From assembly GCF_035440685.1 (NCBI RefSeq), contig NZ_DAORMW010000011.1: a stretch of DNA of 64,000 bases. One strand, 5' to 3'. This document shows, in pieces, positions 1 through 29,000 of the stretch (positions are counted from its first letter, which is position 1; the number at the start of each line of letters is the position of its first letter). A program made the translations under genes and the position numbers. This DNA comes from Accumulibacter sp. (lineage in GTDB: Bacteria > Pseudomonadota > Gammaproteobacteria > Burkholderiales > Rhodocyclaceae). Below the pieces are notes generated by a model, which saw only the letters and a list, made by a program, of their open reading frames with translations, was not told where the DNA came from and made no database searches.

Positions 1-136
1 CGCTTCAGGTAGCAAATCAGCATGAAAATATCCGCTCGAGCGGCAAGACGCCCTTGCGCACAGCAACACCACTTTTTAGCCTGTCCGGCACCGTGTCGGA
101 ACAGAAACCAGCAACTGAAACCGAGGATGTATAGCA

Positions 137-742
137 ATGAATGCTCCGCAGAACCCATCTACCGACATGTTCCGCCTGGACCAGGCTGGCAGCCAGCTGA
201 ACAACCCATTTAAAGCGAGACCTACACGCCGTGCCCCTGGAAACGTCCCTTACGTGGTGGATAACCTTTGGGAGTGGAGTCGCCCTGAAGGCTTTCCCAG
301 CCGGAGGCATTGTGTTTGCGCAAGCCCGAGCGCCGCACTGGCTCAGCAACTTGGCGGTACAGGTGATGGGAGGGTTTTCACGATCAACAATCTCGTAGGG
401 GCGAAAGTTGCCCAGATTCCACATCAGGATGCCCGCTACCATCCCGATGCCACGTCGCTGCACAAGACCCTGCTGAAGCTGCTTGGCTTAGCCTGGGTCG
501 GCGACGATAAAAACCTGAGCGAAATGCACGCCATTGCACCGCTGTGGATGCCCGGTTTGCCGCGCCAGGACGCCGAGGTGCTATTCAAGAATAATCCGCG
601 ACTGGCAGCAATCGAGCCACAGCTTCGAGCAGAGATCAAGTTTTGGGACGACGCACAGTCGGTTTCGTTGCATGGTTCCTGGCCGTTTCCAGACGGCGAG
701 ATTTTCTTCGAGGCCGAGAGTTGGGAACTGACTTTACCTTGA
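137..742 (+). CDS. hypothetical protein (201 aa), no recognisable domain
   Basis: ATG at 137 with AGGA about 9 nt upstream; uninterrupted frame with GC3-rich codon usage; no motif recognised. Confidence 0.45.
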   Translation: MNAPQNPSTDMFRLDQAGSQLNNPFKARPTRRAPGNVPYVVDNLWEWSRPEGFPSRRHCVCASPSAALAQQLGGTGDGRVFTINNLVGAKVAQIPHQDARYHPDATSLHKTLLKLLGLAWVGDDKNLSEMHAIAPLWMPGLPRQDAEVLFKNNPRLAAIEPQLRAEIKFWDDAQSVSLHGSWPFPDGEIFFEAESWELTLP

Positions 743-1059
743 CCTGAACTTCGTCAGACAGTGTCGGGCGGGGTGCAAAAACTATCGATTGCTTCGGCAT
801 TCGGCAATGCGTATGCAGTTGGATGACGCGGGAAGGCGCACAGTACGGGAAAAAAGATGATTAATCTCGTTACTCTAGATTGCCGCGGGATAGGAAAGGC
901 GTCCGTCATGCTCAGCTGCTCCGAAAATGATTTCTTTGTTTCCGGGTGCTTTGCCTTCTGATAGAGTTAAACGCCAAAGCCGATAAAGCTGCTCTAGAGT
1001 ACGTGTTTTCGATGTTTGGTCGAGTTCTTTTATGTCAATTAATAAAAAAGGTGGTGTCC

Positions 1060-2487
1060 ATGGACAAGACGGAGTACGTTCTAACAAGCCTGGCGAAAAC
1101 ACGAAATAAAAAGTGGGAGTTATATGTTGTATCTCGTATTTATCATTTGCTAGATGATCCAGATATTGAATTTGTCTGCCAGCAATTGATTCGCACAGAG
1201 AATTCGTGGTATCTGGTAGATTTGTTTTTCCCCCAGCTTGGTATATTCTTGGAAATAGATGAAAGGCACCATCTTTCACATCAAGAGGCCGATGCTCTCA
1301 GGTCTAAAGAGATATTTTATGGGACAGGCTTAAGTGAGAAAAGAATCGATGTTTGCGATAATGCTCGTCATGACCGCCACATTAATGAGGTTGACAAGCA
1401 GGTTGACAGTTTTGTAGATGTCATTAGGCGCGAGAAGGTAAAAAAAATGGAGAGCGGTAAGTTCAAGGCATGGGATTATGAGAGTAGATTTTCACCGGAT
1501 CCTCATATTAAGCGTGGCCAGATTTGCCTTGGGAATGGCGCCGTGTTTAGAACTCATAAGGACGCGCTTCGGTGCTTTGGCTTCAGCGGGAGCGACCATA
1601 GGAAGGCGGTGTGGGGGGTTGGAGGGAGTAAAGAGGAACGAGCTAGCACCTGTGTCTGGTTTCCAAAACTCTACAGGAATGACGGTTGGGATAATTCGAT
1701 CGACGAAACTCAGACTAACATCTATGAGAAACGAATAGAGGATCCAAAGGGGTATATAAGAGACAACCCGAGAAAATGGAAAAGAAGAATAGTGTTTGCG
1801 CATGAGAGGGATTCATTTGGCAAAACACTTTATAAGTTCAAAGGGGTGTTTGAAAGAGATGATGACAGCAATTCTGATGATAGAGTTGTTTATCAGCGCG
1901 TAGGCGAATGCGTTCACCTGCCAACGGCCGGGGTTCGCGAAATTGGCGCTACGGAGCAGAATCCCCAAGACGAAAGCGATCGCCTTGATGACGGGCTATC
2001 GGGAGTTCTGCAAACACCACAAGCAGAGAAGGCAATAAAGGAAGGGCATATAGATTTCCCGGGATCTGGGGTGTTCAATGATTGGAACACGCTCCCGTTT
2101 GGTCAACCCTGCGGGTGTAAGGAGAAACTTCTTGCGTGTATCACAGATGTAAAGTCGTCCGCGGATGTGATCGCCAAGGCGCTGCTGCATGTCGGTTCCA
2201 GTTGTCGGGAAATAACCACGCTTCTGGTTTTTGCCGTTTATATAAATCGGGACACATGGAATGGTATTTGGAGACTTTTCTACCCTTCCTTTCAAGAGCT
2301 TGAAAATTCAATCAGCATTGAGATAGAAATTGTGTTCGGACAAGAAGTCTCCACGCAGATTTGCACGATCTGTGGAGTCAGGCCTGTAAGCACGCACCGA
2401 GAATGGACTGATACTTGGTCGATGAAAACCATACGGGAGCCTGCTTGCAGAAAGTGCGCATCAACGCCACGAAATATAATGACCTAG
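1060..2487 (+). CDS. PvuRts1I/AbaSI-like modification-dependent (type IV) restriction endonuclease with extra Cys-rich C-terminal region
   Basis: ATG at 1060 after AAAAAGGTGG. N-terminus KTRNKKWELYVVSRIYHLL...YLVDLFFPQLGIFLEIDERHH looks like a Vsr/PD-(D/E)xK nuclease core. Middle part VWFPKLYRNDGWDNS...RIVFAHERDSFGKTLYKFKGVFE looks like the SRA-like reader of this family. Last ~150 aa are additional and end in CTICG...CRKC. Gene lies in a clearly AT-richer islet (~780-2500). Confidence 0.6.
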   Translation: MDKTEYVLTSLAKTRNKKWELYVVSRIYHLLDDPDIEFVCQQLIRTENSWYLVDLFFPQLGIFLEIDERHHLSHQEADALRSKEIFYGTGLSEKRIDVCDNARHDRHINEVDKQVDSFVDVIRREKVKKMESGKFKAWDYESRFSPDPHIKRGQICLGNGAVFRTHKDALRCFGFSGSDHRKAVWGVGGSKEERASTCVWFPKLYRNDGWDNSIDETQTNIYEKRIEDPKGYIRDNPRKWKRRIVFAHERDSFGKTLYKFKGVFERDDDSNSDDRVVYQRVGECVHLPTAGVREIGATEQNPQDESDRLDDGLSGVLQTPQAEKAIKEGHIDFPGSGVFNDWNTLPFGQPCGCKEKLLACITDVKSSADVIAKALLHVGSSCREITTLLVFAVYINRDTWNGIWRLFYPSFQELENSISIEIEIVFGQEVSTQICTICGVRPVSTHREWTDTWSMKTIREPACRKCASTPRNIMT

Positions 2488-2774
2488 TTGAATTGTGCCC
2501 AACGTCACACCCATTAAGGAGTACCCGCAATTGTCGGGGTTGCTTCGTTTCGTCTGGAATGGGCGAGATTGGCGAATTGCGAAAGCGAGCAAAGATGTGG
2601 GCCTTTCACCGATGAGGTGTTCGCCGTAGCGATCTCGGCGACCGCGACCGCGGGCGCACGCGTCGTGAAGGCCTCGCTTCATCGCTTCGACCTGGCCATT
2701 GTGTTTACCTGCGTGGCGCCCGTCGAGGGTGCCACGAAGGTGTTGCGCATTTGGTGGACGGACGCGGAGAGTCA

Positions 2775-3680
2775 ATGTTGACGCATGCATTCACCGACAA
2801 ACTGATCATCGCCATATCGTCCAGAGCGCTGTTCGATCTGGATGAGTGCCATGGGGTCTACGAGCAGGCCGGCGTCGACGCGTATACGCTCTACCAGATT
2901 GAGCACGAAGACACCCCGCTCGAGCCTGGTGTCGCCTTCCCTCTGGTCAGGAAGCTGCTCTTGCTCAACCAGGGAATCCCCAACCGGCAACGCGTCGAGG
3001 TGATCCTGCTTTCGAGAAACAGCGCGGACACCGGGCTGCGGATTTTCAACTCGATTCGCCACCATGGCCTGGACATCACGCGCGCTGCCTTTACCCGCGG
3101 TGAGAGCACCACGCCCTACGTTGGCTCCTTTGGCGCGCATCTGTTTCTCTCCGCAAATTCGGACGACGTGCGCGATGCCCTTGCCAGTGGGCAGGCGGCC
3201 GCATTCCTGCTGCCTTCGGTCGCACCGGAGAGCGCGCGCGATCAGGTGCGCATTGCATTCGACGGCGATGCGGTGATCTTCTCCGATGAGTCGGAGACGA
3301 TCTTCAGGACCAACGGCCTGGAAGCCTTTGTCCGCAACGAAACGGAGTCGGCCCGGACGCCACTCGCGGGCGGCCCGTTTGTCGCCTTCCTTTCTGCGCT
3401 GCAGCGGATTCAGCAGGAGGACAGTGCGCTGATTCGAACCGCACTGGTCACGGCCCGCGGCGCACCCGCACACGAGCGCGTCGTGCGCACCCTGAGAGCC
3501 TGGAATATTCGTATCGATGAGGCCTTTTTTCTGGGGGGATTGGAAAAAGGCCCTTTTCTGAAGGCTTTCGGCGCCGATATATTTTTCGACGACCAGCAAA
3601 CCCATTGCGATTCGGCGCGCCAACACGTCGCCACGGGCCATGTGCCGCACGGCGTAGCCAACGCCAGGTTGACGCCGTAG
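2775..3680 (+). CDS. 5'-nucleotidase family protein (HAD-like, cN-IA/PF06189-type)
   Basis: ATG at 2775 after GGAGAG. Motifs IAISSRALFDLD, IAFDGDAVIFSDESE, FFLGGLEKGPFLKAFGADIFFDDQ are typical of this bacterial 5'-nucleotidase family. Confidence 0.7.
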   Translation: MLTHAFTDKLIIAISSRALFDLDECHGVYEQAGVDAYTLYQIEHEDTPLEPGVAFPLVRKLLLLNQGIPNRQRVEVILLSRNSADTGLRIFNSIRHHGLDITRAAFTRGESTTPYVGSFGAHLFLSANSDDVRDALASGQAAAFLLPSVAPESARDQVRIAFDGDAVIFSDESETIFRTNGLEAFVRNETESARTPLAGGPFVAFLSALQRIQQEDSALIRTALVTARGAPAHERVVRTLRAWNIRIDEAFFLGGLEKGPFLKAFGADIFFDDQQTHCDSARQHVATGHVPHGVANARLTP

Positions 3681-3731
3681 CGTCGATGATCGGGCGGTCG
3701 CGTGGCTCGCCGGGAAGCCCTCCAGCACCTT

Positions 3732-4154
3732 CTACGATCCGCTGACCGAAACGGCCCAGGCGAGAATCGGCCGGAGTCGCGGCCCGAGCAGCGTTGCGGC
3801 TTCCTCGGCGCTCACCCAGCGGTACTCGTCATGCTCTGGCCTGCCGAGTTCCTCGCTGATCGGCAGGCTCAGTTCCTGCCGGGCGACGCGGGCGAGGAAG
3901 TAGGTGGCGACCTTGTCTCCCGAATAGATGGCGGTGTCCTGCGAGACCTCACCCCAGCACAGCTCGCATCGGGCAATGCCGGTTTCTTCGCGCAGCTCGC
4001 GAATCGCCGCCTCAAGCGGCGTCTCGTCGCCATCTGCCGCGCCTTTCGGGAAATCCCAGTTGGCGTAGGCGCGCAGCAGCAGATAGATCCGCTTTCCTTG
4101 CGCATCCGTGGCCGTCGGTACGACGCCGTAGGAGTGTCTTCTTACGGTTGGCAT
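3732..4154 (-). CDS. NUDIX hydrolase (short Ap4A-hydrolase-like form)
   Basis: Nudix box GAADGDETPLEAAIRELREETGI (GX5EX7REUXEEXGU), preceded by WDFPKG; 140 aa. Confidence 0.85.
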   Translation of the reverse strand: MPTVRRHSYGVVPTATDAQGKRIYLLLRAYANWDFPKGAADGDETPLEAAIRELREETGIARCELCWGEVSQDTAIYSGDKVATYFLARVARQELSLPISEELGRPEHDEYRWVSAEEAATLLGPRLRPILAWAVSVSGS

Positions 4155-4279
4155 GGCGTCTCCTCAAAAGCCTTCAGTTTGTGACGAGATGTCGCGAGCG
4201 ATAAGCAGTTGAGCGATCGGCTGCGCAAAGCTCGGGTCGGCGGACTTGCTTCCCTTCCTGCGCCGCGCTCGCGCATTCC

Positions 4280-5005
4280 CTAAGCTTGAAAAGGCTCGTC
4301 GGAATCTGCCATTGATTCTTCTGAAAACTCCGCGTTTTTCAGGGCCTCGAGTAGCTCGCTCTGACGTTCGCCGACACCAAAGAACGACAGTTCATAGGCA
4401 ACGCTATGCAGAACCTGGATGAGGGTCGGCGGGCCGAAATTGATCTCTTCCATGGAGATTGCCTGGCCAGCCGCTTCTTTCGGAGCCCGGTCGTAAACGA
4501 ACACCTTTGAAGTCCGCTCCAGTCGGAGAGGATAGTGCAGGCATGCCTGTACCGGAACGCCGAGCATGCACCACTCTTGTCGGTCGCCCACGCTGCGACC
4601 ATTCGAAGCAGGCTCACCTTGAGGGAACCCGACCCCTGACATGAACAGGCGCGTCATCGGCTCATAGGCCTTGGTACTCATATCAACGCTGCAATTGCGG
4701 GCAAGAAGCAAATATTCCACTTCGTCGGGGTCGTCGACGCCACTGCCGGAATCTGGCTCTTCGGCAAGAGCTTCCTGGATCAACTCCACTGCCCAAAACC
4801 GGCGAAGGACTTGTAGCAGGGGCGGGTTATTTTTCAGGAGCAGCAGAATATCGCGCAGGGTAACGCCATCGTCGAGGACCACCCGCTCGCAGAGGTACTC
4901 GATAGCAAGTTCGGATACGTCCGTCTCGGCGAGGTAGGGGTCCACATAGGACAGCAGGCCACCGACGCTCAGTCGGACGTGGCTGCCTTGCTCGATCATT
5001 TCCAT
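4280..5005 (-). CDS. hypothetical acidic protein (241 aa)
   Basis: ATG at 5005 with strong AAGGAG RBS. Same strand as, and 63 nt downstream of, the WYL regulator gene. No recognisable motif. Confidence 0.6.
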   Translation of the reverse strand: MEMIEQGSHVRLSVGGLLSYVDPYLAETDVSELAIEYLCERVVLDDGVTLRDILLLLKNNPPLLQVLRRFWAVELIQEALAEEPDSGSGVDDPDEVEYLLLARNCSVDMSTKAYEPMTRLFMSGVGFPQGEPASNGRSVGDRQEWCMLGVPVQACLHYPLRLERTSKVFVYDRAPKEAAGQAISMEEINFGPPTLIQVLHSVAYELSFFGVGERQSELLEALKNAEFSEESMADSDEPFQA

Positions 5006-5068
5006 TCATTTCTCCTTGGTGGCCTGTTGGTTATGCACTTGTCGGCATCGATTTCGTTCATCTGGCAG

Positions 5069-6118
5069 TTACTCCGTGAGTGAGGTCGAACCGCTTGTCG
5101 AGCCGCCGCGCTCTTCGTACTGCGCTGCCGCATGTTTGAGTGTCTCCGCGATCAATTCCCTGAGTTCCGGTGGCTCAAGAACTTCCACGTTATCGGCATA
5201 GCTCAGGAGCCACCAGAGGAGATGGCCGGAGAACTTCACCCGGGTTTTCAGGGTCACGCGCCCGTCGTCGCAAGGATGGAGGGTCTGCTGCTCGCCCAGC
5301 GATGTTTCGGCGAGACGTTCCGCGGTCTTCTGGCTGAAGATCGCCACCAGCTCAAGCGTGCTTCCGACCTTGATCGGGTAGGTCCGGCCGAAGCCAAGCT
5401 GCCCGGACTTGATGTAGGCGTCAATATCGAACGCCGCCAGCGGAGGGCGGGCCAGCAAAGAGGGAGCGGCGCTCTGGATACGGTGCATCTGGATGTAGGT
5501 TTGGCTGCCGTCGTCGAGGTTTTTGTAGATCAGGTAAAGCACGACGCCCCGCTGGGTAAGCGCCAGGGGCAGGATCGTGGCCGGGAACGTCTGCTTGCCG
5601 CTTCGATCGCGATAGGTCACGCGTAGGGCTCTGTCATCCAACAGCGCTTCCCGAATCGCCCGGGCCACACCGGGAGACATGCTGGCCGGGTTGAGCATCT
5701 GGGTCGAATCGATGAGGCGGAATTTCTTCTTCCACGACCTCACCCTGGCGGGCGCCGCATCGAGCTTGCTCTCGGCGGCACGGAAAAACGGCGTCAGACT
5801 CTGCAGGGTGGCTTCGGGTAACAGCGACTTGAGATTTTGCTCGATCATGTAGAAGGCCAGTGCCTGTTCCGCCGTCAAGCCAGGCAACCACATGCGGGGG
5901 ACGTCCTGCCATGACCAATAGTAGGTCTTTCCCTCGGCCCGGTAGTGAATATCAAAATCTTCGCTGAGCGCTTGCAGGTCGCGTTCAACGGTTCTCTTGC
6001 CAACAGCCTCGCGCGTCTGTTCGACGAGAATCCGGTGGATTTCTTCGGTTGACTTCGCCTGCCCACGCGCTTGCGGAACAAGCGTCAGGATGATCCACTG
6101 CCGTTTCACCTGGTTCAT
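5069..6118 (-). CDS. WYL-domain transcriptional regulator (wHTH-WYL-WCX architecture, BrxR/CapW/PafBC-like)
   Basis: N-terminal wHTH (STEEIHRILVEQTREAVGKRTVERDLQAL). WYL core LRVTYRDRSGKQTFPATILPLALTQRGVVLYLI...IQMHRIQSA. C-terminal HLLWWLLSYADNVEVLEPPELR. Confidence 0.8.
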   Translation of the reverse strand: MNQVKRQWIILTLVPQARGQAKSTEEIHRILVEQTREAVGKRTVERDLQALSEDFDIHYRAEGKTYYWSWQDVPRMWLPGLTAEQALAFYMIEQNLKSLLPEATLQSLTPFFRAAESKLDAAPARVRSWKKKFRLIDSTQMLNPASMSPGVARAIREALLDDRALRVTYRDRSGKQTFPATILPLALTQRGVVLYLIYKNLDDGSQTYIQMHRIQSAAPSLLARPPLAAFDIDAYIKSGQLGFGRTYPIKVGSTLELVAIFSQKTAERLAETSLGEQQTLHPCDDGRVTLKTRVKFSGHLLWWLLSYADNVEVLEPPELRELIAETLKHAAAQYEERGGSTSGSTSLTE

Positions 6119-6158
6119 AGATTCGAACCTTCATCGACCGACCCGGAAGCCGGACACC

Positions 6159-6737
6159 TCATCGCTCACCTGTCATCGACAAAACCGGCTGGTAGCTCAT
6201 GACGAACCATTCCTGGATCGCTGTCTCAATCGTATCCGGGCGTGCCAGCCGCACCTGCACTATTGCCTCCTCCGCCGACATGCCGGACTCGATCAGCAAG
6301 TAAGCGGCGATGGTTCCCGTTTGGCCCAGACCGCCCTTGCCGTGCAGAAAGACGCGCTGACCCGCCTGTAGCGTGCTCATGATTTCTCGGCCCAGCTCCG
6401 GCCAGCGTTCGTTGAAGGATTTTCCGGGAAGGGAGATGTCAGGGATAGGCAGGTGACGCAATTTCATGCCCAGGCGATCGACATCATCGGGCAGTGTCGC
6501 CACCTGGAGCTCCTCGAATTCATGCGCCTCAACGAGGGAGATTATCATGCGGCTACCCCATTGATGAATGCGGGCCAGGTCGGCGGCAAGGTCGCGCTGC
6601 CAATGTCCTGCTTTGGCATTGCGCTGCTTCTTGCCGGGGCAGAACGACATACCGATCAAGGCGCAGCCGCCGGCAGGCTGAACAGCGTCGATGCGGATCG
6701 GATCGGTGTCACTGGTGCGGTCGAGCGAAGGGTTCAT
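6159..6737 (-). CDS. protein-tyrosine/dual-specificity phosphatase-fold protein (CDKN3-like), predicted catalytically dead
   Basis: ATG at 6737, 5 nt after the stop of the AAA+ gene. IPDISLP loop plus P-loop-like VFLHGKGGLGQTGTIAAYLL, where the canonical HCxxGxxR(S/T) has Gly for Cys and Gln for Arg. Confidence 0.65.
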   Translation of the reverse strand: MNPSLDRTSDTDPIRIDAVQPAGGCALIGMSFCPGKKQRNAKAGHWQRDLAADLARIHQWGSRMIISLVEAHEFEELQVATLPDDVDRLGMKLRHLPIPDISLPGKSFNERWPELGREIMSTLQAGQRVFLHGKGGLGQTGTIAAYLLIESGMSAEEAIVQVRLARPDTIETAIQEWFVMSYQPVLSMTGER

Positions 6738-6742
6738 GCTGC

Positions 6743-9001
6743 CTAGCTCAGAAAGCCGATGGACGTCGTCTTGGCACCTTTTTTCACGGCGCACTCGCGT
6801 TCAAGGCACTGCAAGAAGTTCTCCGCCGTATAGCGCTCACCGAGCAGGCGTTCCTGGCGTTGCACGGTTGCGAAATCGCCGGGAGTCGCGGCAGTCAGTT
6901 TCTGGAGCGCCTGGCGAAGCGGCGGCGTGAGAGGCGCGGTGGGGCTGCCAAAGACGATCTCGGCAAACAAGGCCTCGACCTGCTGCGGCGTCAGCGCATC
7001 AAAGCGCAGCTTGAAGGTGAAGCGGCGCATGGCTGCTTCGTCCACATCGTTCATCAGGTTGGTGGTGCAAATGAAAATGCCGTTGAAGGCTTCCATTTGT
7101 TGCAGGAGCTCGTTGACCTGGGTGACTTCCCACGAGCGCTGAGCCTGTTGCCGGCTGCGAAGAAAGCTGTCGGCCTCGTCGAGCAGAAGGACTGCGCCTT
7201 CCTGACTGGCTTCATGGAACATGCGGGCAATGTTCTTTTCCGCTTCGCCGACGTACTTGCCAAGCAGGTCGGAAGCGCGCTTGATGGCCAGCGGACGACC
7301 AATGGCGTCGGCCAGATGACGGGCCAGAGAAGTCTTGCCGGAGCCCGGAACGCCGTGGAAGCAGAGGGTGGCGGCGGCGTTGCGGCGCAGCGCCTGCTCG
7401 ATTTTTTCGAGCGGCAGGTCGCTATCAAGGTTGAGATAGGCAAAGTTGCAGGGGCTGGCGCTGACCAGCTGGCTGTTGATCGAGAAGCTGCGGCCCATGG
7501 CGGTCTGGCTGGCCTTGATCGCCTGCAGGAAAACCGACTCGTCGATCTCGCCGGAATTCGTGTTGCAAAGCAGGGCGAAGCGGCTGGCCTGGTTGACCTG
7601 TGCGGGCGACAAACTCTCGTCGGTGGCCAGCGCGGTCACCAGACTGTCGCTGACAACGGCACTTTCCAGACAGCGCCTGATGACGCGCTCGCGGACCGCT
7701 TTCGGCGGCGTCCGGAATTCAATGTGAAAGCTGAAGCGACGCAGAAAGGCGTCATCGATGGCGTCGATGGAATTGGTAATCCAGATCGCGGGAACCGGCG
7801 AATGCTCGAGTTGCTGATTGAGCCAGGCCTTCGGCTGATCGGAGCGCGAGCTGGAACGGCCGCGTCCAAACAGAGACGAGAAGCTCGGGCCCAAATCGGG
7901 AAAAACATCTTCGATTTCATCAAAGATGACCAGCGACCGCTCGCGTTCGGATAGAAAGCGTTGCGCGACGGCAAAGCAGTTCAGGCGATTCTTGCCAGCG
8001 ACCGGATCGCCATCGCTGTCGGCGGAGCGGACATCGAAGGCCGCCAGGCCTGCGTGCTCGGCGAGCAAGCGCGCAAACTCGGATTTCCCGGTGCCGGGAG
8101 CACCGTAGAGGAGAACGTTGGCCCCTTGCTTCCGACCATTTGCCACGTTCTTCAGGTAAGTCACCAGCCAGGCGAACTCACGCTCCATATGGGGATAGTC
8201 GTGTGCCGCGAGGCCGGCGGCCGGTGCGGGCTGGAGAACGGCGCGCAGCATGTCTTCCGGGGTCGTAAACTCCTCTACCAGGAAGGTCTGGCCGACGTTA
8301 TCGAGACGCAGAAAGTCTTCGAGATCGTTGGGTGTGCTGTCCAGCGTGACCAGGCCATAGGCGCGCAGGGTGGCGTTCGCCCGCAGCGCCTTCTTGACGG
8401 CTGCGGTGGGCGCGTCAATGGCGGCGGCGACCAGGCCATAGGCCTCGGCGGGAGCAAATCCACTGACCGTGCGCAGAAACCTGCGGAACTGCTCATGGCC
8501 GCGCGTTTCCACGAAGTCGAGCAGCCTGCTCTCGACCGGCTCCAGGTCGAGCAGCTTGACCAGCAGTGGAATGTTGCGGTTGCCGGGAGCTTTGAGCGCA
8601 GTCTTGGGTTTCAGGCGCGCGAGGTTGTCTTCCAGCGCACCGACGATCAGCTTGGGGCTCTTGGCGTACAGCCGAGAAATGGTGTCTTCGTAGGTGCTCC
8701 ACTGCTGACGGCTCTTGAGCAGTGCGCCGATGTTGGCTGCTGCACCACCTTGGTTGGTGACTGCGGGGGCTTCTTCGTCGGTGTTAGCGGTCAGGGCAAG
8801 ATGCAGGGCGTGACTAATCTGCTGTGGCCAAACCACTTGCTTGCCGAGCATCCGCAGCCAGGGCTCGCAGTCATCTACCTGGGAGGCAAGAATTTCCGGA
8901 TGATGCAGCAGGATATGCAGGGCGAAAACCGCACCGCGGCCAGCAAGCCGACCCGCCGCTCCGTTCGCGGGCGTACTCCGGAAATCCGCATAACTATCCA
9001 T
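6743..9001 (-). CDS. tandem AAA+ ATPase (two classical-clade AAA modules) with ~300-aa helical N-terminal region
   Basis: ATG at 9001 after AAGGAG. Module 1: GAPGTGKSE / VIFDEIED / DDAFLRRF. Module 2: GVPGSGKTS / LLLDEADS / TNLMNDVDEAAMRRF. Confidence 0.85.
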   Translation of the reverse strand: MDSYADFRSTPANGAAGRLAGRGAVFALHILLHHPEILASQVDDCEPWLRMLGKQVVWPQQISHALHLALTANTDEEAPAVTNQGGAAANIGALLKSRQQWSTYEDTISRLYAKSPKLIVGALEDNLARLKPKTALKAPGNRNIPLLVKLLDLEPVESRLLDFVETRGHEQFRRFLRTVSGFAPAEAYGLVAAAIDAPTAAVKKALRANATLRAYGLVTLDSTPNDLEDFLRLDNVGQTFLVEEFTTPEDMLRAVLQPAPAAGLAAHDYPHMEREFAWLVTYLKNVANGRKQGANVLLYGAPGTGKSEFARLLAEHAGLAAFDVRSADSDGDPVAGKNRLNCFAVAQRFLSERERSLVIFDEIEDVFPDLGPSFSSLFGRGRSSSRSDQPKAWLNQQLEHSPVPAIWITNSIDAIDDAFLRRFSFHIEFRTPPKAVRERVIRRCLESAVVSDSLVTALATDESLSPAQVNQASRFALLCNTNSGEIDESVFLQAIKASQTAMGRSFSINSQLVSASPCNFAYLNLDSDLPLEKIEQALRRNAAATLCFHGVPGSGKTSLARHLADAIGRPLAIKRASDLLGKYVGEAEKNIARMFHEASQEGAVLLLDEADSFLRSRQQAQRSWEVTQVNELLQQMEAFNGIFICTTNLMNDVDEAAMRRFTFKLRFDALTPQQVEALFAEIVFGSPTAPLTPPLRQALQKLTAATPGDFATVQRQERLLGERYTAENFLQCLERECAVKKGAKTTSIGFLS

Positions 9002-9409
9002 TCCTGGCTCCTTGTTTGGTTGATGGTACCCAGCGTAAAACCACATGCGTCAGCTTATGTCGCATGGAGTCTGGGCCGCTGCAGGTCCAAGAATCCAGCG
9101 GGCAGATGGAGAGGGTTACAGGGGCAAGCGTGACGCTCTGGTGTAGGGATGTGGCGAGGTGGTGTGTGCTTTTTTTCCGGCTGGTGTAGCGTTGCACTCT
9201 TGACGAGCTTTTTTCAGGCGGCGTGAAACCTTGTGAAGGCTGAGGTTCCAGGCTGCGTTTCGCACCACGCCAACATGCTCGTCGTCACCTATTGGCGTGG
9301 TGTGCGAACGAACAGCTTTTATCGCCCGATGAATCGGGCTCCTACATGGGCAGGCGCGTCGTTCTTTGGGTGGGAGTGATTCATTGGGCGATGTCTTACC
9401 AGAGGTGCG

Positions 9410-10018
9410 TCAGCGCTCGCCTCGGTTGCCAGGAGGTGCGCCGAGCAGCAGCGCCAGCGCACTGTCGGCGAGTTCATCCAGCGAAAGCTTGCCGTCGGCA
9501 CGATACCAGTGCTTCGACCAGTTGAGCATGCCGAACAGCAGCAGTCGCACCGGGGGCGTGGCGGAGGCGATCCTGCCGGCCTGCGCCAGTTCGTCGAGCG
9601 TCTCTTGCCACGGCACTTGGTAGCGGTCGAAGGCGGCGGCGATTTCCGCGTGCGCGGCGGCGTCGAGGGCGCGCGTTTCGCCGAGCAGCATCGGCGCCGG
9701 GCACTCGCCTTCGAGCAGGGTGCCGAGGTGGGTGCGGACCAGTATGCGCAGCCGCTGCTCGGGTTCGCCGACGCCGTCGATGGCGGCGAGCAGGCGCGTG
9801 TAGCCGGCGTCGAGGCCCTCGACCATCGCCGTCTTCAACAGCTCCTGTTTGCTGCGAAAGTGATAGAAGGGGCTGCCCGAGCGCATGCCGACGGCGTCGG
9901 CGATGTCGCGCGTGGTGGTGGCGTCGAAGCCCTTTTCGACGAACAGCCGTGCCGCGGCGCGCAGCAACTCGGCGCGGCGATTGGGCTCGAGCCCGGCTTC
10001 TGCCTTTCGTCTCGGCAT
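9410..10018 (-). CDS. TetR/AcrR family transcriptional regulator
   Basis: N-terminal HTH LLRAAARLFVEKGFDATTTRDIADAVGMRSGSPFYHF; 60 nt downstream of fadH on the same strand. Confidence 0.9.
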   Translation of the reverse strand: MPRRKAEAGLEPNRRAELLRAAARLFVEKGFDATTTRDIADAVGMRSGSPFYHFRSKQELLKTAMVEGLDAGYTRLLAAIDGVGEPEQRLRILVRTHLGTLLEGECPAPMLLGETRALDAAAHAEIAAAFDRYQVPWQETLDELAQAGRIASATPPVRLLLFGMLNWSKHWYRADGKLSLDELADSALALLLGAPPGNRGER

Positions 10019-10078
10019 CGGCTCAAGCCGGACCGAGGGCGTACGGCGCGCGCGGCGTGGCGCGCAGGCGGGTGATCG

Positions 10079-12187
<2,109 letters not shown>

Positions 12188-12280: not shown

Positions 12281-14380
12281 TCAGGGCTGGTGGCCCTTCG
12301 CCGCTTCCGCCCCGGCGGTATTGTCCAGCAAGCTCCGGGTGGCAATTTGCAGGAAGGCATCCAGCTTCGCTTTCAGTTCCGGGGCGAGGTCGATGGCGAT
12401 GCGTTCGGCTTTCGGATCAGCCCCCAACTGGTAGCTGTAGAGGCGGGGCTCGAAACCCTTGGGCTCGATCAGAATACGTTCGGGGGTGATCAGGGCGACG
12501 GTCTGATCGCCGCCCGAGGGCTTGACCACCCCGATTCCGAGGTCGCCCTCCGGCAGATTGAGCAGGTCGCGTCCCCAGCATTGATGGCGAACCGTGCCGC
12601 CGAGGCGACCCATGATCGTCGGCACCACGTCGACCTGCGTGCCGACGTGGTGATTGCGGCTGCCGAATTTTTCCTGAATTCCCGGAGCAATCAGCAACAG
12701 CGGCACATTGAAGCGGAAGAGGTCCATTTCGGTCAGTTGCTGGTCGCTGCCGAAGCCATGGTCGCCGACCACGACGAACAGGGTGTGCTTGTAATACGCC
12801 GACTTGCGCGCTTTCGCGAAGAACTCGCCGAGTGCCCAGTCGGCATAGCGCATGGCGGTCAGGTGTTCGCCGAAAATGCCGCGATCGGTCACCCGCTCGA
12901 TCGGAAGGACCTTTGGCAGCGCGTACGGGGTGTGGTTGGACAGCGTCTGCAGCAGGGCGTAGAAGGGCTTGTCGGCAGGCAGCTTGTCGAGTTCGGCGGC
13001 GGCGCGGTCGAACATGTCCTGATCGGAAACGCCCCAGGTCGGATCCATGTACACCGGGTCAACGAAATCCTCGCGGCCGATGAAGCGGGTCATTCCCTGG
13101 TTGCTGAAGAAGCCCGACTGGTTGTCCCACTGGAAGTTGCCGTTGTACACGTAGAGGTTGTCGTAGCCGCGCGCACTGAGCAGCTGCGGCAGGCCGGAGA
13201 ACTTGTGCGCGCCTTCGGGGGTGCGCATCAGGTACTCGAAAGCGGGCAGGTTCGGGAAGCAGGCCATCGTCGCGAACATGCCCTGGTGGGTGTGCGTGCC
13301 ATTGGAGAAGAAGCGGTCGAAGAGCAGGCCCTCCCTGGCCAGTGCGTCGAAGTGCGGGGTGATGTCGCCCGTGCCGCCCAGCGCGCCGACGAAATGCCCG
13401 GCGAAGCTTTCCATCAGGATGACCACGACGTTGCGAATCGGCAGGGTACGGTCGGCGGGCGGAGTGAAGTCACGGCGGATCGCCGCATTGTCGGCGTCGA
13501 CCAGGCGGTCGTGCGGCGTGAGCAGCAGCTGCCGTACGATGTCCAGCGCCTGTTCGTCGGGCATGGTCGATTGCCAGCTATTGCTGCGCTGCGAGGACAT
13601 GCTGGCCTCGGCCGCCGAGAGCAGCGTCAGCGAACCGTTGAGGCCCAGCTGATTGGCGAACATCGAATTGGTGGTGTAGGCGTCTCCCCAGCGCAGTGGC
13701 GGTCCCTGCCGCAAGTGGCCGCGGGCGGCGACCACGGCAAGCAGGGCGCAGAGGAGGAAAAGGCCGCTCCGCCAGTACCAGGTCGGCGCCGCGTATGCCG
13801 GTTGTGGCGGCGATTCTTCGTGCAGCGCCGGGATCACCGGTCGGCTGATCCGGTCTAGGCCCTTGAACAGTGTGGCCAGCAGCCAGGTGGCGATCGCCCA
13901 GGCCAGCAGATAGCGGCCAACCGGGAAGCCGTTCCACAACATGCTCCCCACCGTGGCCAGGTCTTCCTCGAAATACTGGAACACCAGGCCGTTCAGGCGC
14001 TGGTGGAATTCGCGATAGAAATCGAGCTCGGTAATGCCGAGCAGCAGGGTGAAACTGGCGAAGGCGGTCAGCCAGCCGCGCTGCAGAGCGCGGGCGGCCA
14101 TGGCGCGGACGCTGAGCAAAGCCAGCAGCAGTGGCGCGAGCGCATAGACCACCAGACGCACATCGAAACGCAGGCCGTTGTAGAAAGCCTCGACGAAGGT
14201 CGTTGCCGGGGTGTCGCCGATCAGCTCGCGGTTGTAGTACAGCAGCGTCATGCGCAACAAGGCGTACAGGGTGAGCAGCGCGGCGCCGCTGAGCAGGGTG
14301 AAGGCGAGGTGACTCTTCAGGGTCGGGCCGTTGATGCGGCGGCTGAGCGGCGGCGTACGCCGCGTGAGGGTGGCTGTCAT
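12281..14380 (-). CDS. LTA synthase / phosphoglycerol-transferase family sulfatase-like membrane protein
   Basis: N-terminal multi-TM region followed by a sulfatase domain (VVVILMESF, FFSNGTHTHQGMF, VVVGDHG). Confidence 0.85.
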   Translation of the reverse strand: MTATLTRRTPPLSRRINGPTLKSHLAFTLLSGAALLTLYALLRMTLLYYNRELIGDTPATTFVEAFYNGLRFDVRLVVYALAPLLLALLSVRAMAARALQRGWLTAFASFTLLLGITELDFYREFHQRLNGLVFQYFEEDLATVGSMLWNGFPVGRYLLAWAIATWLLATLFKGLDRISRPVIPALHEESPPQPAYAAPTWYWRSGLFLLCALLAVVAARGHLRQGPPLRWGDAYTTNSMFANQLGLNGSLTLLSAAEASMSSQRSNSWQSTMPDEQALDIVRQLLLTPHDRLVDADNAAIRRDFTPPADRTLPIRNVVVILMESFAGHFVGALGGTGDITPHFDALAREGLLFDRFFSNGTHTHQGMFATMACFPNLPAFEYLMRTPEGAHKFSGLPQLLSARGYDNLYVYNGNFQWDNQSGFFSNQGMTRFIGREDFVDPVYMDPTWGVSDQDMFDRAAAELDKLPADKPFYALLQTLSNHTPYALPKVLPIERVTDRGIFGEHLTAMRYADWALGEFFAKARKSAYYKHTLFVVVGDHGFGSDQQLTEMDLFRFNVPLLLIAPGIQEKFGSRNHHVGTQVDVVPTIMGRLGGTVRHQCWGRDLLNLPEGDLGIGVVKPSGGDQTVALITPERILIEPKGFEPRLYSYQLGADPKAERIAIDLAPELKAKLDAFLQIATRSLLDNTAGAEAAKGHQP

Positions 14381-26077: not shown

Positions 26078-29000
26078 TCAGTTCTTGCCCGGCTGCGCGT
26101 CGGGTATGCTGAAGTGCTTTCTTTCCTTTTCGTCGAGCTCGCGCCCGACGCGCCCGAGTACTTCGGTGGCGGTCTCTTCGATCGGGCGGCACGAGTCGCA
26201 GTGCCACCGTTGCACCGTCCCTTTCCTGCTGGTGGTGAGCACGCTGTTGCCGTCGGCAGAGAACTGCGCGCTCAGGAGCGCTCCGTCATCGCCGCGCAGG
26301 ACTTCCAACTGACGGCCGCTGGCCACATCCCACAGTCGCGCGGTCCCGTCCTCGCTGGCGGTGACCGCGGTCTTGGCATCGGGAGAGAACTGCGCACTCA
26401 CGACCCACTGCTCATGGCCGCGCAGCACATGCAGCTCCCGGCCGCTGACCACATCCCACAATCGCGCGGTCTTGTCGTCGCTGGCGGTGATGACCCTGAG
26501 CGGGGGCTTGCCATCGGGAGAGAACTGCGCGTTTTCGACCCAATCATCATGGCCCTGCAGGACGTCCCACAATTTGCCGTCTTCAACCGTCCACACTCGC
26601 GCGGTGCCGTCCTGGCTAGTGGTGATCACGTAATTGCCATTGGGGGAGAACCGTGCGCTCTGAACCGGGCCCGTGTGCTCGTTCAAGGTGTGCAACAGTT
26701 TGCCGGTGTTCCCCTCCCACAGGCGGGCGGTCTCGTCGTCCTTGCTGGTGGTGATCACGAACCTGCCATCGGGGGAGAACTGTGCGCTCTGAACCGGGCC
26801 CGGGTGGCCTTTCAGGGTGTGCAACAGTTCGCCACTGTCCACGTTCCACAGGTGCGCGGTATTGTCGTCGTCGCTGGTGGCGGTAATCACGAACTTGCCA
26901 TCGCAGGAGAACTGTGCGCTCAGAACCGGGCCCGCGTGGTCTTTCAGAGTGTGCAACAGCTCGCCGGTGTTCACCTCCCACACTCGCGCGGTGCCGTCCT
27001 TGCTAGTGGTGATCACGGACTTGCCATCGCAGGAGAACTGTGCGCTCAGAACCGGGCCCGGGTGGTCTTTCAGGGTGTGCATCAGTTCGCCGGTGTTCAC
27101 CTCCCACAGGCGGGCCGTCTCGTCGTCCTTGCTGGTGGTGATCGCGGTCTTGCCATCGGGAGAGAGCAGGGTAGTCCCGACCAAGCCTCCAGGAGGCTGG
27201 CGCAGCACTACCGGCTCGTGGTTGCCGTCCAGCATCCACAGTCGCGCCGTTTTGTCGTTGCTGGCGGTAAGTATGGTCGTGCCGTCGACAGAGAATTGCG
27301 CGCTTCGGACCCAACTCCCATGGCCGCGCAGGATGTGCAACAGTTCGCCGGTGTTCACCTTCCACAGTCGCACGGTCCTGTCGTCGCTAGCGGTGAGCAC
27401 GGTTTTGCCGTCGGGGGAAAACTGCGCGTCCAGGACAGAACCCTCATGGCCTTGCAGGATGTGCAACAGTTCGCCGCTGTTCACGTCCCACAGTCGCACG
27501 GTCTTGTCGTCGCTAGCGGTGAGCACGGTCTTGCGGTCGGGAGAGAATTGCGCGCTCAGGACCCAATCCTGATGGCCTTTCAGTTCGTGCCGTAGATGAC
27601 CGCTGTCGACGTTCCACAGTCGTGCGGTCTGGTCCTTGCTGGTGGTGATTGCGGTCTTGCCATCGGGAGAGATCTGCGCGCTCAGAACCGAGCGCTTATG
27701 CCCTTGCAGCGTGTGCAATAGTTGACCGTTGTCCACGTTCCAGAGTCGTGCGGTATCGTTCTTGTTGATGGTGATTGCGGTCTTGCCATCGGGGGAGAAG
27801 TGTGCGCTCAGAACCGGGCTTTCATGGCCGCGCAGTACGTGCGACGGGTTGCCGCTGTCCACCTCCCAAAGTCGGGCGGTGTTGTCGTCGCTGGCGGTGA
27901 TCGCGGTCTTGCCATCGGGAGAGAACCGAGCGCTTCGGACGGGTGCCGTATGGCCTGTCAACACGTGCAACGGTTGGCTGCTGGCCACGTTCCACAGTCG
28001 CGCAGTTTTGTCGTCGCTGGCGGTGATCGCGGTCTTGCCATCGGGAGAAAACCGAGCGCTACGGATGGGCGCCGTATGGCCTTTCAGCTCGTGCAACTTT
28101 TGGCCGCCGGCCACGCTCCACAGTCGCGCGGTGTCGTCGTTGCCGGCGGTAATCGCGGTCTTGCCATCGGGCGAGAACTGCGCGTTCCACACGTGGCCCT
28201 TATGGCCGCGCAGGACATGCGAGTACGCATAGTCGGCGTTCGCCGATCTGAGGATCCCGTCGGCCTTGGCGTTGGCCTCGGGCTTGTCGAGCTGGTGCAC
28301 TGCCAGCGCCAGCCGCAGGCTCTGGTCGGGATTGTACCTGCCGAGTTCTTCGGCCTTGATCGCCAGCTCACTGACGCGATTCTCAAGGGCCCGCTTTTGG
28401 GCTTCTTCTTTTGCGGCGATGGCCTGGATTTTCGACTGTTTGGCGTGGTAGCTTGCGTAGTTTGCGTCGTTTTTCGACTGCTCGGCTTCTTCTTTTGCGG
28501 CGTTTGCCTGCCATCCCAACCAGGCTGCGATCAGAGCCGCGACCACCGCGATTGCGCAACCGCCGATGGCGATATGGCTGCGCCGGGAAATGCGCTGCGC
28601 ATAGTCTTCCGCCTGTTGGCGGTCCTTCACTGCGCGCGCGCGTTCCCCTTCAGCGCGCTCCGCAGCCGCGTGCTGCAATTCGGCCTCCGCCTCAAGCCTC
28701 GCCGTGCGTGCCTCCTCGGCCTGGCGCTGCAGGGCCTGCGCGCGCTCGGCTGCTTTTATGTGCCATTCCAGGCTGCCCTGGATGTAGGCGTCGACCAGCG
28801 CGTAGGCGCCAGGCCCTTCGTAACGTGTGGCCCAGGTCTCGGGATGGGCGCGGCTTTGTACCCGCGTACGCCAGCGCTCCGCGCGCCGGCGGTCGTTGTC
28901 GTCCAGCAGGTCGCCGCCTTCCTTCTCCCAGCGGGTCGCACGCCGCTGCCACTCGCGGAGTTCGCTGACGTCGAGGTCCTCTTCGTCGAGCCAGTCGCGG

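Follow-up and report, generated by a model that had tools for sequence, protein, structure and literature searches.

A possible trimmed copy of a mobile WYL-AAA+ module, kin to ADP-ribosylglycohydrolase-centric systems, in an Accumulibacter genomic islet

We analysed a 64,000-nucleotide stretch of Accumulibacter sp. DNA (contig NZ_DAORMW010000011.1 of assembly GCF_035440685.1; hereafter, the window), in which an earlier reading of the sequence alone (the original prediction) had singled out four packed genes at positions 4280-9001 as a candidate defence or conflict system: a tandem AAA+ ATPase, a catalytically dead phosphatase, a WYL regulator and an acidic protein. Comparison with related loci indicated that the robust conserved unit is not this set of four genes but the AAA+ ATPase plus the WYL regulator, together with a palindrome. 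We give a probability of about one half to the reading that positions 137-9063 form a horizontally acquired islet, containing a trimmed and partly disabled copy of a mobile WYL-AAA+ module that is kin to the ADP-ribosylglycohydrolase (ARG)-centric systems. Judging from the compared gene neighbourhoods, the invariant core of this module would be a WYL switch and an IetA-like tandem AAA+ unfoldase, and its cargo is exchangeable. Gene models were based on the listing of open reading frames, their translations and independent database gene calls, all of which agreed with the coordinates given earlier. The features of the islet are the following (aa, amino acids; pI, isoelectric point; wHTH, winged helix-turn-helix):

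137-742, plus strand: 201-aa protein of an uncharacterised family, with the motif NVPYxVDNxWEWxRP...PSRR...ASP
1060-2487, plus strand: PvuRts1I-like nuclease with SRA domain (Pfam PF21598, PF18491)
2751-3680 (gene caller start 2775), plus strand: HAD-type 5'-nucleotidase, PF06189 (Pfam 2.9e-129)
3732-4154, minus strand: Nudix hydrolase, 140 aa (Pfam NUDIX 3.6e-18)
4280-5005, minus strand: acidic protein, 241 aa (pI 4.3, no family)
5069-6118, minus strand: wHTH-WYL-WCX regulator, 349 aa (Pfam WCX, WYL)
6159-6737, minus strand: protein with KAP/CDKN3-like Cys-phosphatase fold, 192 aa, dead allele (Pfam Tc-R-P/CDKN3/PTP-SAK)
6743-9001, minus strand: tandem AAA+ ATPase, 752 aa (Pfam AAA twice, 1.6e-42)
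9047-9063, no strand: candidate operator palindrome GCGTCAGCTTATGTCGC (GCGAC-N7-GTCGC type)

The evidence for the smaller unit comes from 80 reference-genome loci of the ATPase family, which were arranged in a neighbour-joining tree; genes in high-GC loci were called with a caller based on the GC content of third codon positions (GC3), which was tested on L001 by comparison with the gene calls of the database (L numbers designate individual loci). A Burkholderiales clade of about 70 orthologues, 36-41% identical with the N-terminal domain included, dominates the 80 loci and forms one short-branched group, and the remaining 21 lineages are deep and long-branched. A WYL gene was found in the same locus in 15 of these 21 lineages and a phosphatase gene in 7 of them, while 13 plasmid loci that were inspected had a WYL gene beside or near the ATPase gene in nine cases and a RecB-family nuclease in eight. 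The AAA+/WYL pairing spans Alpha-, Beta- and Gammaproteobacteria as well as Desulfobacterota, with shuffled gene orders, and on plasmids and islands such loci adjoin bacteriophage exclusion (BREX-2) systems, toxin-antitoxin pairs, a Tiamat-like gene, SIR2, HEPN, PLD and SNF2. In the Burkholderiales clade, the ATPase gene lies in a core synteny with genes for PEP carboxykinase, threonine dehydratase, a thioesterase, RecQ, MetH and a GGDEF-EAL protein, and neither a WYL gene (0 of about 70) nor a phosphatase was found there; in L020-L098, the gene is vertically inherited, convergent with recQ and near metH. A mainly core-genome location had been named as evidence that would speak against the original prediction: the roughly 70 Burkholderiales orthologues are indeed partner-less core genes, whereas the other lineages are mobile. 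Similarly, co-occurrence of the four families was borne out for the ATPase and the WYL regulator, and in part for the recurrent phosphatase, but not for the 241-aa protein, which was absent from all 21 related AAA+ loci.

The ATPase, the WYL regulator and the phosphatase occur as a trio in the window, L179, L016/L181, L101, L014, Sphaerotilus and Fuscovulum/Leisingera. Representative arrangements are listed below (AAA, ATPase; PTP, phosphatase of the protein tyrosine phosphatase type; ARH, ADP-ribosylglycohydrolase; MAG, metagenome-assembled genome; percentages, ATPase identity to the window protein):

L179 (78%): AAA-PTP-106 aa-WYL-229 aa
L016/L181 (60-66%): AAA-PTP-WYL-FGE-sulfatase-domain protein-DUF2779 nuclease-second WYL
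L101 (51%): WYL-DUF2779-membrane protein-AAA, divergent from PTP-SbcD-SbcC
L019, Azospira (59%): AAA-membrane protein-STAND/TPR, without WYL or PTP
L182 (59%): AAA, small open reading frames, WYL, helicase
Sphaerotilus plasmid: BREX-2, then WYL-AAA-SIR2-MavL macrodomain-PTP
Fuscovulum and Leisingera plasmids: AAA-WYL-[PTP-ARH fusion]-(HEPN)-AddB-like-AddA-like-about 420 aa-PLD-like-SNF2 helicase
Pantoea and Desulfosarcina: AAA, WYL, about 400 aa, about 650 aa PLD-like, SNF2
Novosphingobium, 35-kb plasmid: AddA-AddB-WYL, divergent from AAA
Thiodictyon: WYL divergent from 141 aa-AAA-TmtA-like
Methylomonas and a Trichlorobacter MAG (L064): RtcB

The cargo recruited by these loci comprises the Cys-phosphatase (usually with an ADP-ribosylglycohydrolase, sometimes with SIR2 or a macrodomain), RecB-family nucleases and helicases (AddAB-like, DUF2779, RecBCD), PLD-like proteins with SNF2 helicases, and the 201-aa family. 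A PTP-ARH fusion or an ARH neighbour was present in L099, L162, Fuscovulum and Leisingera, and the loci of the window's own clade are surrounded by anti-restriction genes, insertion sequence (IS) elements, RecT and DruA. Several individual associations were also recorded. The RtcB RNA ligase gene lies immediately downstream of the ATPase gene in two distant lineages (L064:2105-5424 and L189:6930-8126), with Trichlorobacter adding PrfH, SIR2 and a metallophosphatase; the ATPase is accompanied by SIR2 and a MavL-type macrodomain in L186:5704-10431, on the Sphaerotilus plasmid beside BREX-2; and in L014:4155-8813 it is found with SIR2 and an FtsZ/tubulin-like protein, where, curiously, a spastin/Vps4-like ring meets a homologue of tubulin. 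In L019 (12222-13022) and L101 (6875-7624), the gene right after the ATPase gene encodes, in place of the phosphatase, a hydrophobic protein of about 250 aa, predicted to be a multi-pass membrane protein, with 55% identity between the two.

The 752-aa tandem AAA+ ATPase described earlier was confirmed, with Pfam AAA matching twice and the motifs intact in both rings. In the family alignment, Walker A and B and the paired arginines of the second region of homology (SRH) are kept in both D1 and D2 (GPPGTGK/DE, RR invariant), whereas an aromatic pore loop (KYVG) occurs in D2 only. The PDB sequences matched were those of Cdc48, VAT, p97, Rix7 and spastin, and the protein shares with the best of these (Cdc48/p97/VAT) the two AAA rings, the D2 pore loop and the SRH arginines; it differs from them in having a helical bundle with a winged helix, rather than a double-psi barrel, as its N-domain, and a D1 ring without pore loop. 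The best named hidden Markov model (HMM) for D2 was IetA/IteA, with 132 bits against 65 for any other AAA+ model (E-values of 3.7e-40 in PADLOC and 2.4e-38 in NCBIfam). IetAS (IteA) is said, in work by Gao et al. in 2020 and Yamamoto et al. in 2009, to be an anti-phage and plasmid-stabilisation pair. The window protein resembles IetA in its D2 ring, in being borne by mobile elements and in having relatives that are found with SNF2 helicases, but IetA is a single ring of about 370 aa and the window ATPase has two rings plus an N-domain of 285 aa. Membership in IetAS was rejected: the 132 bits with NCBIfam NF042959 compare with a cut-off of 510 and cover profile positions 123-268 of 367, through D2 alone, the PADLOC IetA matches are likewise partial, and no peptidase domain, such as that of the subtilisin-like protease IetS, was found in the window genes or in the sister loci inspected. 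The pup_AAA model gave 38.8 bits, against a cut-off of 504.75.

The N-domain (about 285 aa) was modelled with AlphaFold2 (AF2) as an all-helical bundle followed by a MarR-like winged helix, with a predicted local distance difference test (pLDDT) score of 81. The Foldseek comparison that had been proposed for this domain was run against PDB and BFVD and returned no match at E <= 0.001; the top matches, to the MarR/MepR family, were non-significant (E > 0.3), and the N-domain profile gave only a weak winged-helix match, to FadR, in PDB. A PHROG 'ATPase' family covers the same N-domain region, and the phage collection contained one, partial, homologue of the ATPase.

The wHTH-WYL-WCX architecture previously assigned to the regulator was upheld. 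Pfam detected WYL (1.8e-7, residues 152-217) and WCX (2.2e-18, residues 255-331), the PADLOC WYL model spanned residues 38-319 (1.4e-25) and the N-terminal helix-turn-helix aligns with that of its relatives; similarity to solved members was weak (E about 0.05) and confined to the WCX region. The palindrome GCGTCAGCTTATGTCGC lies 46-62 nt upstream of the ATPase ATG and is its sole match in the 64-kb window. A GCGAC-N7-GTCGC motif, with up to one mismatch allowed, recurs at a like position across three proteobacterial classes, in 13 non-redundant loci, either ahead of the ATPase operon, at a distance of about 50-115 nt, or in the intergenic region between divergent WYL and ATPase genes, against a background of about 1e-4 per nt, that is, about 1.5% expected per site. 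Loci bearing the motif include Sphaerotilus, Rhodoferax, Thiodictyon, Methylomonas, Novosphingobium and Fuscovulum (positions, among others, L019:9924, L181:7938, L186:5644, L188:4281, L191:4371, L101:9896 and L182:6726). A relaxed form of the palindrome showed no genome-wide enrichment in count, so that its position alone is informative, and an alignment of the WYL recognition helices did not set palindrome-bearing loci apart from the others. On the strength of its recurrent placement, we regard the palindrome as a candidate WYL operator. In the subsurface metagenome locus L014, copies of the motif also stand ahead of recC, of the genes for the ADP-ribosylglycohydrolase and the phosphatase, and of two genes of unknown function (positions 11783, 3501, 9938, 10584 and 640), and these extra palindromes hint at a small regulon that may include RecBCD.

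The phosphatase was recognised by Pfam Tc-R-P (2.6e-8) as well as by CDKN3 and PTP-SAK, and Pfam classes its family with the dual-specificity phosphatases (DSPs) of polymorphic toxins. Searched against PDB sequences, the family profile matched solved DSPs and KAP over its full length, with E-values down to 4e-24, and the general acid D100, in a PIPD loop, is invariant across the family. The full-length match and the PIPD acid loop are thus shared with KAP/CDKN3 and the archaeal and bacterial small DSPs (1FPZ, 5Z59, SsoPTP), but the HCX5R(S/T) loop is lost from the window allele, in which HGKGGLGQTG stands in place of the family's HCxGGLGR(T/A)G (C133G and R139Q). The label 'dead' given to this protein is therefore correct for the window allele, because its P-loop lacks both the Cys and the Arg. 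It does not describe the family, for which both catalytic residues were kept in 60 of 60 homologues covering the motif region. Sequencing error can be excluded, since the dead allele is present on many contigs. Cys133 and Arg139 are the only two sites where the allele departs from columns conserved at 90% or more, and after so exact a knock-out of its two catalytic residues the phosphatase could do no more than bind a ligand or act as a scaffold.

A 92%-identical sister allele (L185), with the site intact, allowed the tempo of this change to be compared between genes. The ratio of nonsynonymous to synonymous substitutions (dN/dS) was 0.29 for the phosphatase, against 0.05 for the C-terminus of the ATPase and 0.14 for the WYL regulator, and 11 of the 16 replacements fell within residues 93-146, around the pocket. 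Further changes in the window lineage are W93L, R99P, M101I, C107S and C146Y, with three cysteines gone. From these comparisons, C133G/R139Q is a strain-specific allele of a family that is probably active, and the catalytic loss a recent, lineage-specific event that preserved the fold, with which selection and early decay would agree alike. In 80 metagenome loci the phosphatase family was mostly fused or adjacent to an ADP-ribosylglycohydrolase, without the ATPase, and from these genomic partners we infer that its substrates are ADP-ribose-linked rather than phosphoproteins.

The 241-aa protein is acidic (pI 4.3) and matched nothing in Pfam, NCBIfam, PHROG, PADLOC or PDB, in keeping with the unknown fold noted at the outset, but it is no orphan. 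A word-indexed search returned nine relatives, all from Accumulibacter, and a full profile search 285 distant homologues of 220-340 aa (95 at 1e-10 or better), none of which had a Pfam, PHROG or PDB match. The 68%-identical relatives occur on their own within a conjugative element (TraI, TraU, TrbC, TraN), beside an FHA-PP2C-kinase-ClpB-like operon, with no ATPase, phosphatase or WYL gene nearby, and on a Polaromonas plasmid a homologue stands by itself amid toxin-antitoxin and IS genes. The AF2 model, from an alignment of eight sequences, was unusable (pLDDT 33), and a profile built from an alignment of 70 sequences found nothing among PDB sequences. In L008-L012 (gene 10001-10795) and L179:7835-10877, 241-aa homologues and an AAA-PTP-WYL set flank opposite sides of the same Fer4_12/GYF-kinase-DnaJ/PP2C/FHA/ClpB-like operon of an Accumulibacter conjugative element. 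A kinship among the small neighbours of the ATPase (241, 249, 266, 236 and 159 aa) was considered and rejected, as only L019_266 and L101_249 are related and none resembles the 241-aa protein. By this distribution, the 241-aa gene is a local add-on to the operon and not a conserved partner.

As originally described, the four cassette genes lie on the same strand, separated by 5, 40 and 63 nt, with the phosphatase reading frame beginning 5 nt past the ATPase stop codon and the Nudix gene starting 125 nt beyond the 241-aa gene. AAGGAG stands 7 nt ahead of the ATPase ATG. The ribosome-binding sites, all called strong before, are so in four of the five minus-strand genes but weak in the phosphatase gene, which suggests that the latter is translationally coupled. 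No frameshifts were found in the cassette genes, no PADLOC system model matched the cassette and a megablast of the cassette against plasmids gave no match. The Nudix protein had a weak PADLOC match (PDC-S07, 6e-8), and in no other locus inspected was a Nudix gene found beside the ATPase gene. Convergent with it is a 5'-nucleotidase gene that the original prediction left unmentioned, whose product matched the candidate defence HMM PDC-S08 of PADLOC at 8.1e-134 (positions 14-317 of 323). On an unrelated activated-sludge contig, a 51%-identical PF06189 5'-nucleotidase gene (L126:7774-8664) directly adjoins a PTP gene, an adjacency suggesting that the two phosphatases are functionally connected. 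The nuclease gene is PvuRts1I-like (PF21598, N-terminal, 2.3e-23; PF18491, SRA, 1.3e-23; PADLOC mREase_II 4.3e-87) and low in GC (0.46, against 0.63 for the window), as had been reported, but it is not directly adjacent to the cassette, from which the Nudix and the plus-strand 5'-nucleotidase genes separate it. It is presumably a low-GC insert and an independent neighbour, of type IV, modification-dependent specificity.

Another overlooked gene encodes the 201-aa protein at the far end of the islet. In L181 (58% identity) and P. luteola (33%, 8e-25), a homologue immediately precedes the ATPase gene, and others were found beside a PTP-ARH gene (L118) and beside a WYL gene and an AddAB-like pair (Salinibacter plasmid), a pattern that makes the 201-aa family a recurrent partner of the module. 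Its identification with the 'ARPP' family of PMC9503650 was rejected for lack of an invariant Cys. Abutting the window on its left, and co-directional with the 201-aa gene, are genes for an AddB-like (892 aa) and an AddA-like (1098 aa) protein, conserved partners that the original prediction likewise missed, and the right flank is core metabolism (TetR, a 2,4-dienoyl-CoA reductase-like oxidoreductase and a sulfatase). The genes of the stretch that runs from AddB through the ATPase have a GC3 of 0.63-0.77, against 0.84-0.87 in the flanking core genes. Window positions 1-9500 are 100% identical to other assemblies (L001, L201), and the cassette is conserved at 100% on more than 15 contigs of this Candidatus Accumulibacter-type, sludge-bioreactor population, whereas TetR/FadH (9501-11500) differs from those assemblies by 8-14%, or by 7-14% with part of the sulfatase gene (12501-14000) included, in a mosaic. 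Behind this mosaic lies either an exchange of the islet from strain to strain, by transfer or recombination, or a chimeric metagenome assembly. Elsewhere in the window, an imperfect GC-rich hairpin at about 9259-9308, between the TetR stop and the ATPase promoter (11-bp perfect stem plus extension, no T-run), could serve as a terminator for TetR or represent a REP-like element, and a 1580-aa nSTAND1 NTPase with long WD40 arrays, an architecture of the conflict-system type, is encoded at 26078-30820 on the minus strand, 17 kb from the cassette.

The closest set of components was found in the ARG-centric systems, which were predicted in silico by Iyer, Burroughs, Anand, de Souza and Aravind (2022, Viruses 14:1977, section 3.8; PMC9503650) and proposed to reverse ADP-ribosylation by phages. 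They comprise WYL and Nudix repressors, a rhodanese-phosphatase, HAD 5'-nucleotidases (as the alternative phosphatase), macro proteins, chaperones, and restriction-fold nucleases with helicases. The window shares with them the WYL regulator, the phosphatase family, the HAD 5'-nucleotidase and the nuclease/helicase component (AddAB-like), as well as the organisation into a conserved core with variable cargo, and the diagnostic PTP-ARH fusion stands beside the AAA+ and WYL genes in the sister loci of Fuscovulum, Leisingera and L099. It differs in that its phosphatase is dead and that the chaperone slot holds an AAA+ protein; in addition, the sister loci L014, Sphaerotilus and L064 carry a sirtuin, a class that the search template of that study left out. 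The view that the cassette belongs to no named defence system was thus right as regards PADLOC, which matched none, but too strong, given the similar sets of WYL, phosphatase, 5'-nucleotidase and nuclease/helicase genes already predicted (PMC9503650).

Other known systems were further away. No domains of BREX, cyclic oligonucleotide-based antiphage signalling (CBASS), Pup, PafA or the proteasome were present in the window genes, in agreement with what had been stated of the cassette, and a PafBC-Mpa/proteasome locus was rejected, as PafA, Pup, the proteasome and the coiled-coil/OB N-domain of Mpa are all absent from them. With BrxR, CapW, DriD and PafBC, the regulator shares the three-domain architecture, a position next to conflict or DNA-damage operons and a palindrome in the promoter region, although its gene is third in the operon and not upstream. 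Regulators of this architecture sense single-stranded DNA (ssDNA), according to PMC11662680 and PMC10853764. The ternary conflict systems of Kaur et al. 2020 were considered as a source of the architecture and found unsupported, and none of four further sources (Picton 2022, a 2026 paper on BREX diversity, DefensePredictor and a domain-centric discovery paper) describes this combination.

Put together, these likenesses allow a mechanism to be proposed. A WYL dimer would bind the palindrome and hold the operon off until a nucleic-acid or ADP-ribose-type ligand, arising from DNA damage or infection, frees it, as has precedent with ssDNA for CapW, DriD and PafBC. The ATPase hexamer would then pick its target through the helical/winged-helix N-domain and thread it through the D2 pore, thereby occupying the chaperone slot of an ARG-centric anti-ADP-ribosylation system. 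The accessory enzymes may remove ADP-ribose remnants (the glycohydrolase or macro protein, then the phosphatase, Nudix and 5'-nucleotidase) or attack nucleic acid. The copy in this genome lacks the glycohydrolase, and the 241-aa, Nudix, 5'-nucleotidase and PvuRts1I-like genes are probably local additions to it.

Several observations weigh against an acquired, ARG-related conflict module. The window has no SIR2, ADP-ribosyltransferase or obvious effector inside the operon, and its genes gave no Pfam match to PF03747, the defining ARG domain, or to a macro domain. The chaperones named in the text of PMC9503650 are vWA, SseB and TY-Chap, and an AAA+ ATPase is not among them. The motor need not act in defence, given that Burkholderiales keep a member of this ATPase family as a stable core gene without partners. 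L019, with a 59% identical ATPase, retains the palindrome and yet has no WYL or PTP gene within 10 kb, so that WYL is only the presumed regulator at this site, and the plasmid sample was small, with neighbourhoods taken from annotations. Finally, many neighbours are DNA-repair genes (RecBCD, AddAB, SbcCD, RecQ, Pol II and a Y-family polymerase), which fit repair equally. A module for DNA-damage repair or tolerance, in which WYL would be activated by ssDNA like DriD and PafBC, and the unfoldase, end-processing enzymes and phosphatase/glycohydrolase would clear blocked, ADP-ribosylated or protein-linked DNA ends, is accordingly the most serious of the alternatives, and one that we hold to be possible rather than probable. 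It would account for the AddAB-like pair beside the ATPase in the window, Novosphingobium, Fuscovulum and Leisingera, for RecBCD in L014, L024 and L026, for SbcCD in L101 and Croceicoccus, for RecQ in the Burkholderiales clade, for Pol II in Diaphorobacter and the Y-family polymerase in Desulfosarcina, and for the palindrome before recC in L014; the weak PLD/Tdp1-like matches of the partner of about 650 aa, the ssDNA sensing attributed to WYL regulators and the core-genome clade, which suits a housekeeping role, point the same way. This link was, however, noticed post hoc and without a null, several of the contexts are typical defence islands (BREX-2, TmtA-like, HEPN, SIR2, toxin-antitoxin), and the combination of PLD, SNF2 and a gene of unknown function, for which ZacB/ZacC and DrmD gave weak matches, is likewise a signature of defence. 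The repair and defence readings moreover overlap, because DNA damage itself induces defence operons of the CapW type.

The resemblance of D2 to IetA raises the further idea of an IetAS-like toxin-antitoxin or stabilisation function, with the AAA+ protein guarding a toxic partner (nuclease, SIR2 or phosphatase) and the phosphatase inactivated by selection, leaving the cassette inert here. IetA is the plasmid-stabilising antitoxin ATPase of such a pair, of which variants (ietHAS) acquire SNF2 helicases (PMC13069673), the phosphatase family is grouped with polymorphic-toxin DSPs, the changes in conserved columns hit the two catalytic residues only, and the module is plasmid- and island-borne. We nevertheless find this unlikely: an IetS-type protease was not found, the IetA cut-off is far from reached, and the phosphatase occurs in a third of the lineages, in a family that is mostly solitary or ARG-fused and thus eraser-like. 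Outright decay, so that the cassette would no longer be a functional system in this genome, would agree with the dead phosphatase, its raised dN/dS and the clustering of changes around its active site, with the missing glycohydrolase and effector, and with the low-GC restriction gene and the 5'-nucleotidase that part the cassette from its usual nuclease/helicase partners, but it seems less likely still, as the ATPase and WYL genes are under strong purifying selection with their motifs intact, no gene is frameshifted, the candidate operator is kept and the phosphatase otherwise retains its conserved residues. The self-contained four-gene defence system of the original prediction, in which the small proteins would be a dedicated sensor and effector, could invoke the tight co-directional packing with short gaps and the identical cassette on more than 15 contigs. 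It is contradicted by the comparative data and strikes us as very improbable: the 241-aa gene is unlinked to the ATPase in other loci, the dead active site is unique to the window allele, and other members of the clade fill the slot with 106- and 229-aa proteins, with an FGE-sulfatase protein and a DUF2779 nuclease, or with a membrane protein. A bolder claim, which we also consider improbable, is that the WYL-AAA+ pair and its operator form an unrecognised, phylum-spanning inducible family, in which a Cdc48-like unfoldase, acting with AddAB, RecBCD or SbcCD machines and ADP-ribose erasers, would clear ADP-ribosylated or protein-blocked ends, much as in p97-dependent adduct repair, in opposition to phage or toxin ADP-ribosyltransferases, and that C133G/R139Q is a selected, substrate-trapping pseudo-phosphatase.

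For this genome, the result is that the locus would be a trimmed, probably partly disabled copy of a wider module, and that its annotation as a four-gene defence system is unwarranted. The module most likely serves conflict or damage response and is related to the ARG-centric WYL/phosphatase anti-ADP-ribosylation systems that had already been predicted (PMC9503650). If the reading of the islet as a copy of a mobile, ARG-related WYL-AAA+ module is correct, the WYL-AAA+ core would add a protein-unfolding motor to a class of systems that has been little explored and is believed to reverse the ADP-ribosylation brought about by invaders, and the conserved candidate operator would offer a direct handle on its regulation. 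The pair formed by the active, 92%-identical sister allele and the dead allele found here would provide a natural control for the role of the phosphatase, and comparison of the mobile, WYL-linked lineages with the domesticated Burkholderiales core clade may reveal how the motor of a conflict system was co-opted, or the reverse.

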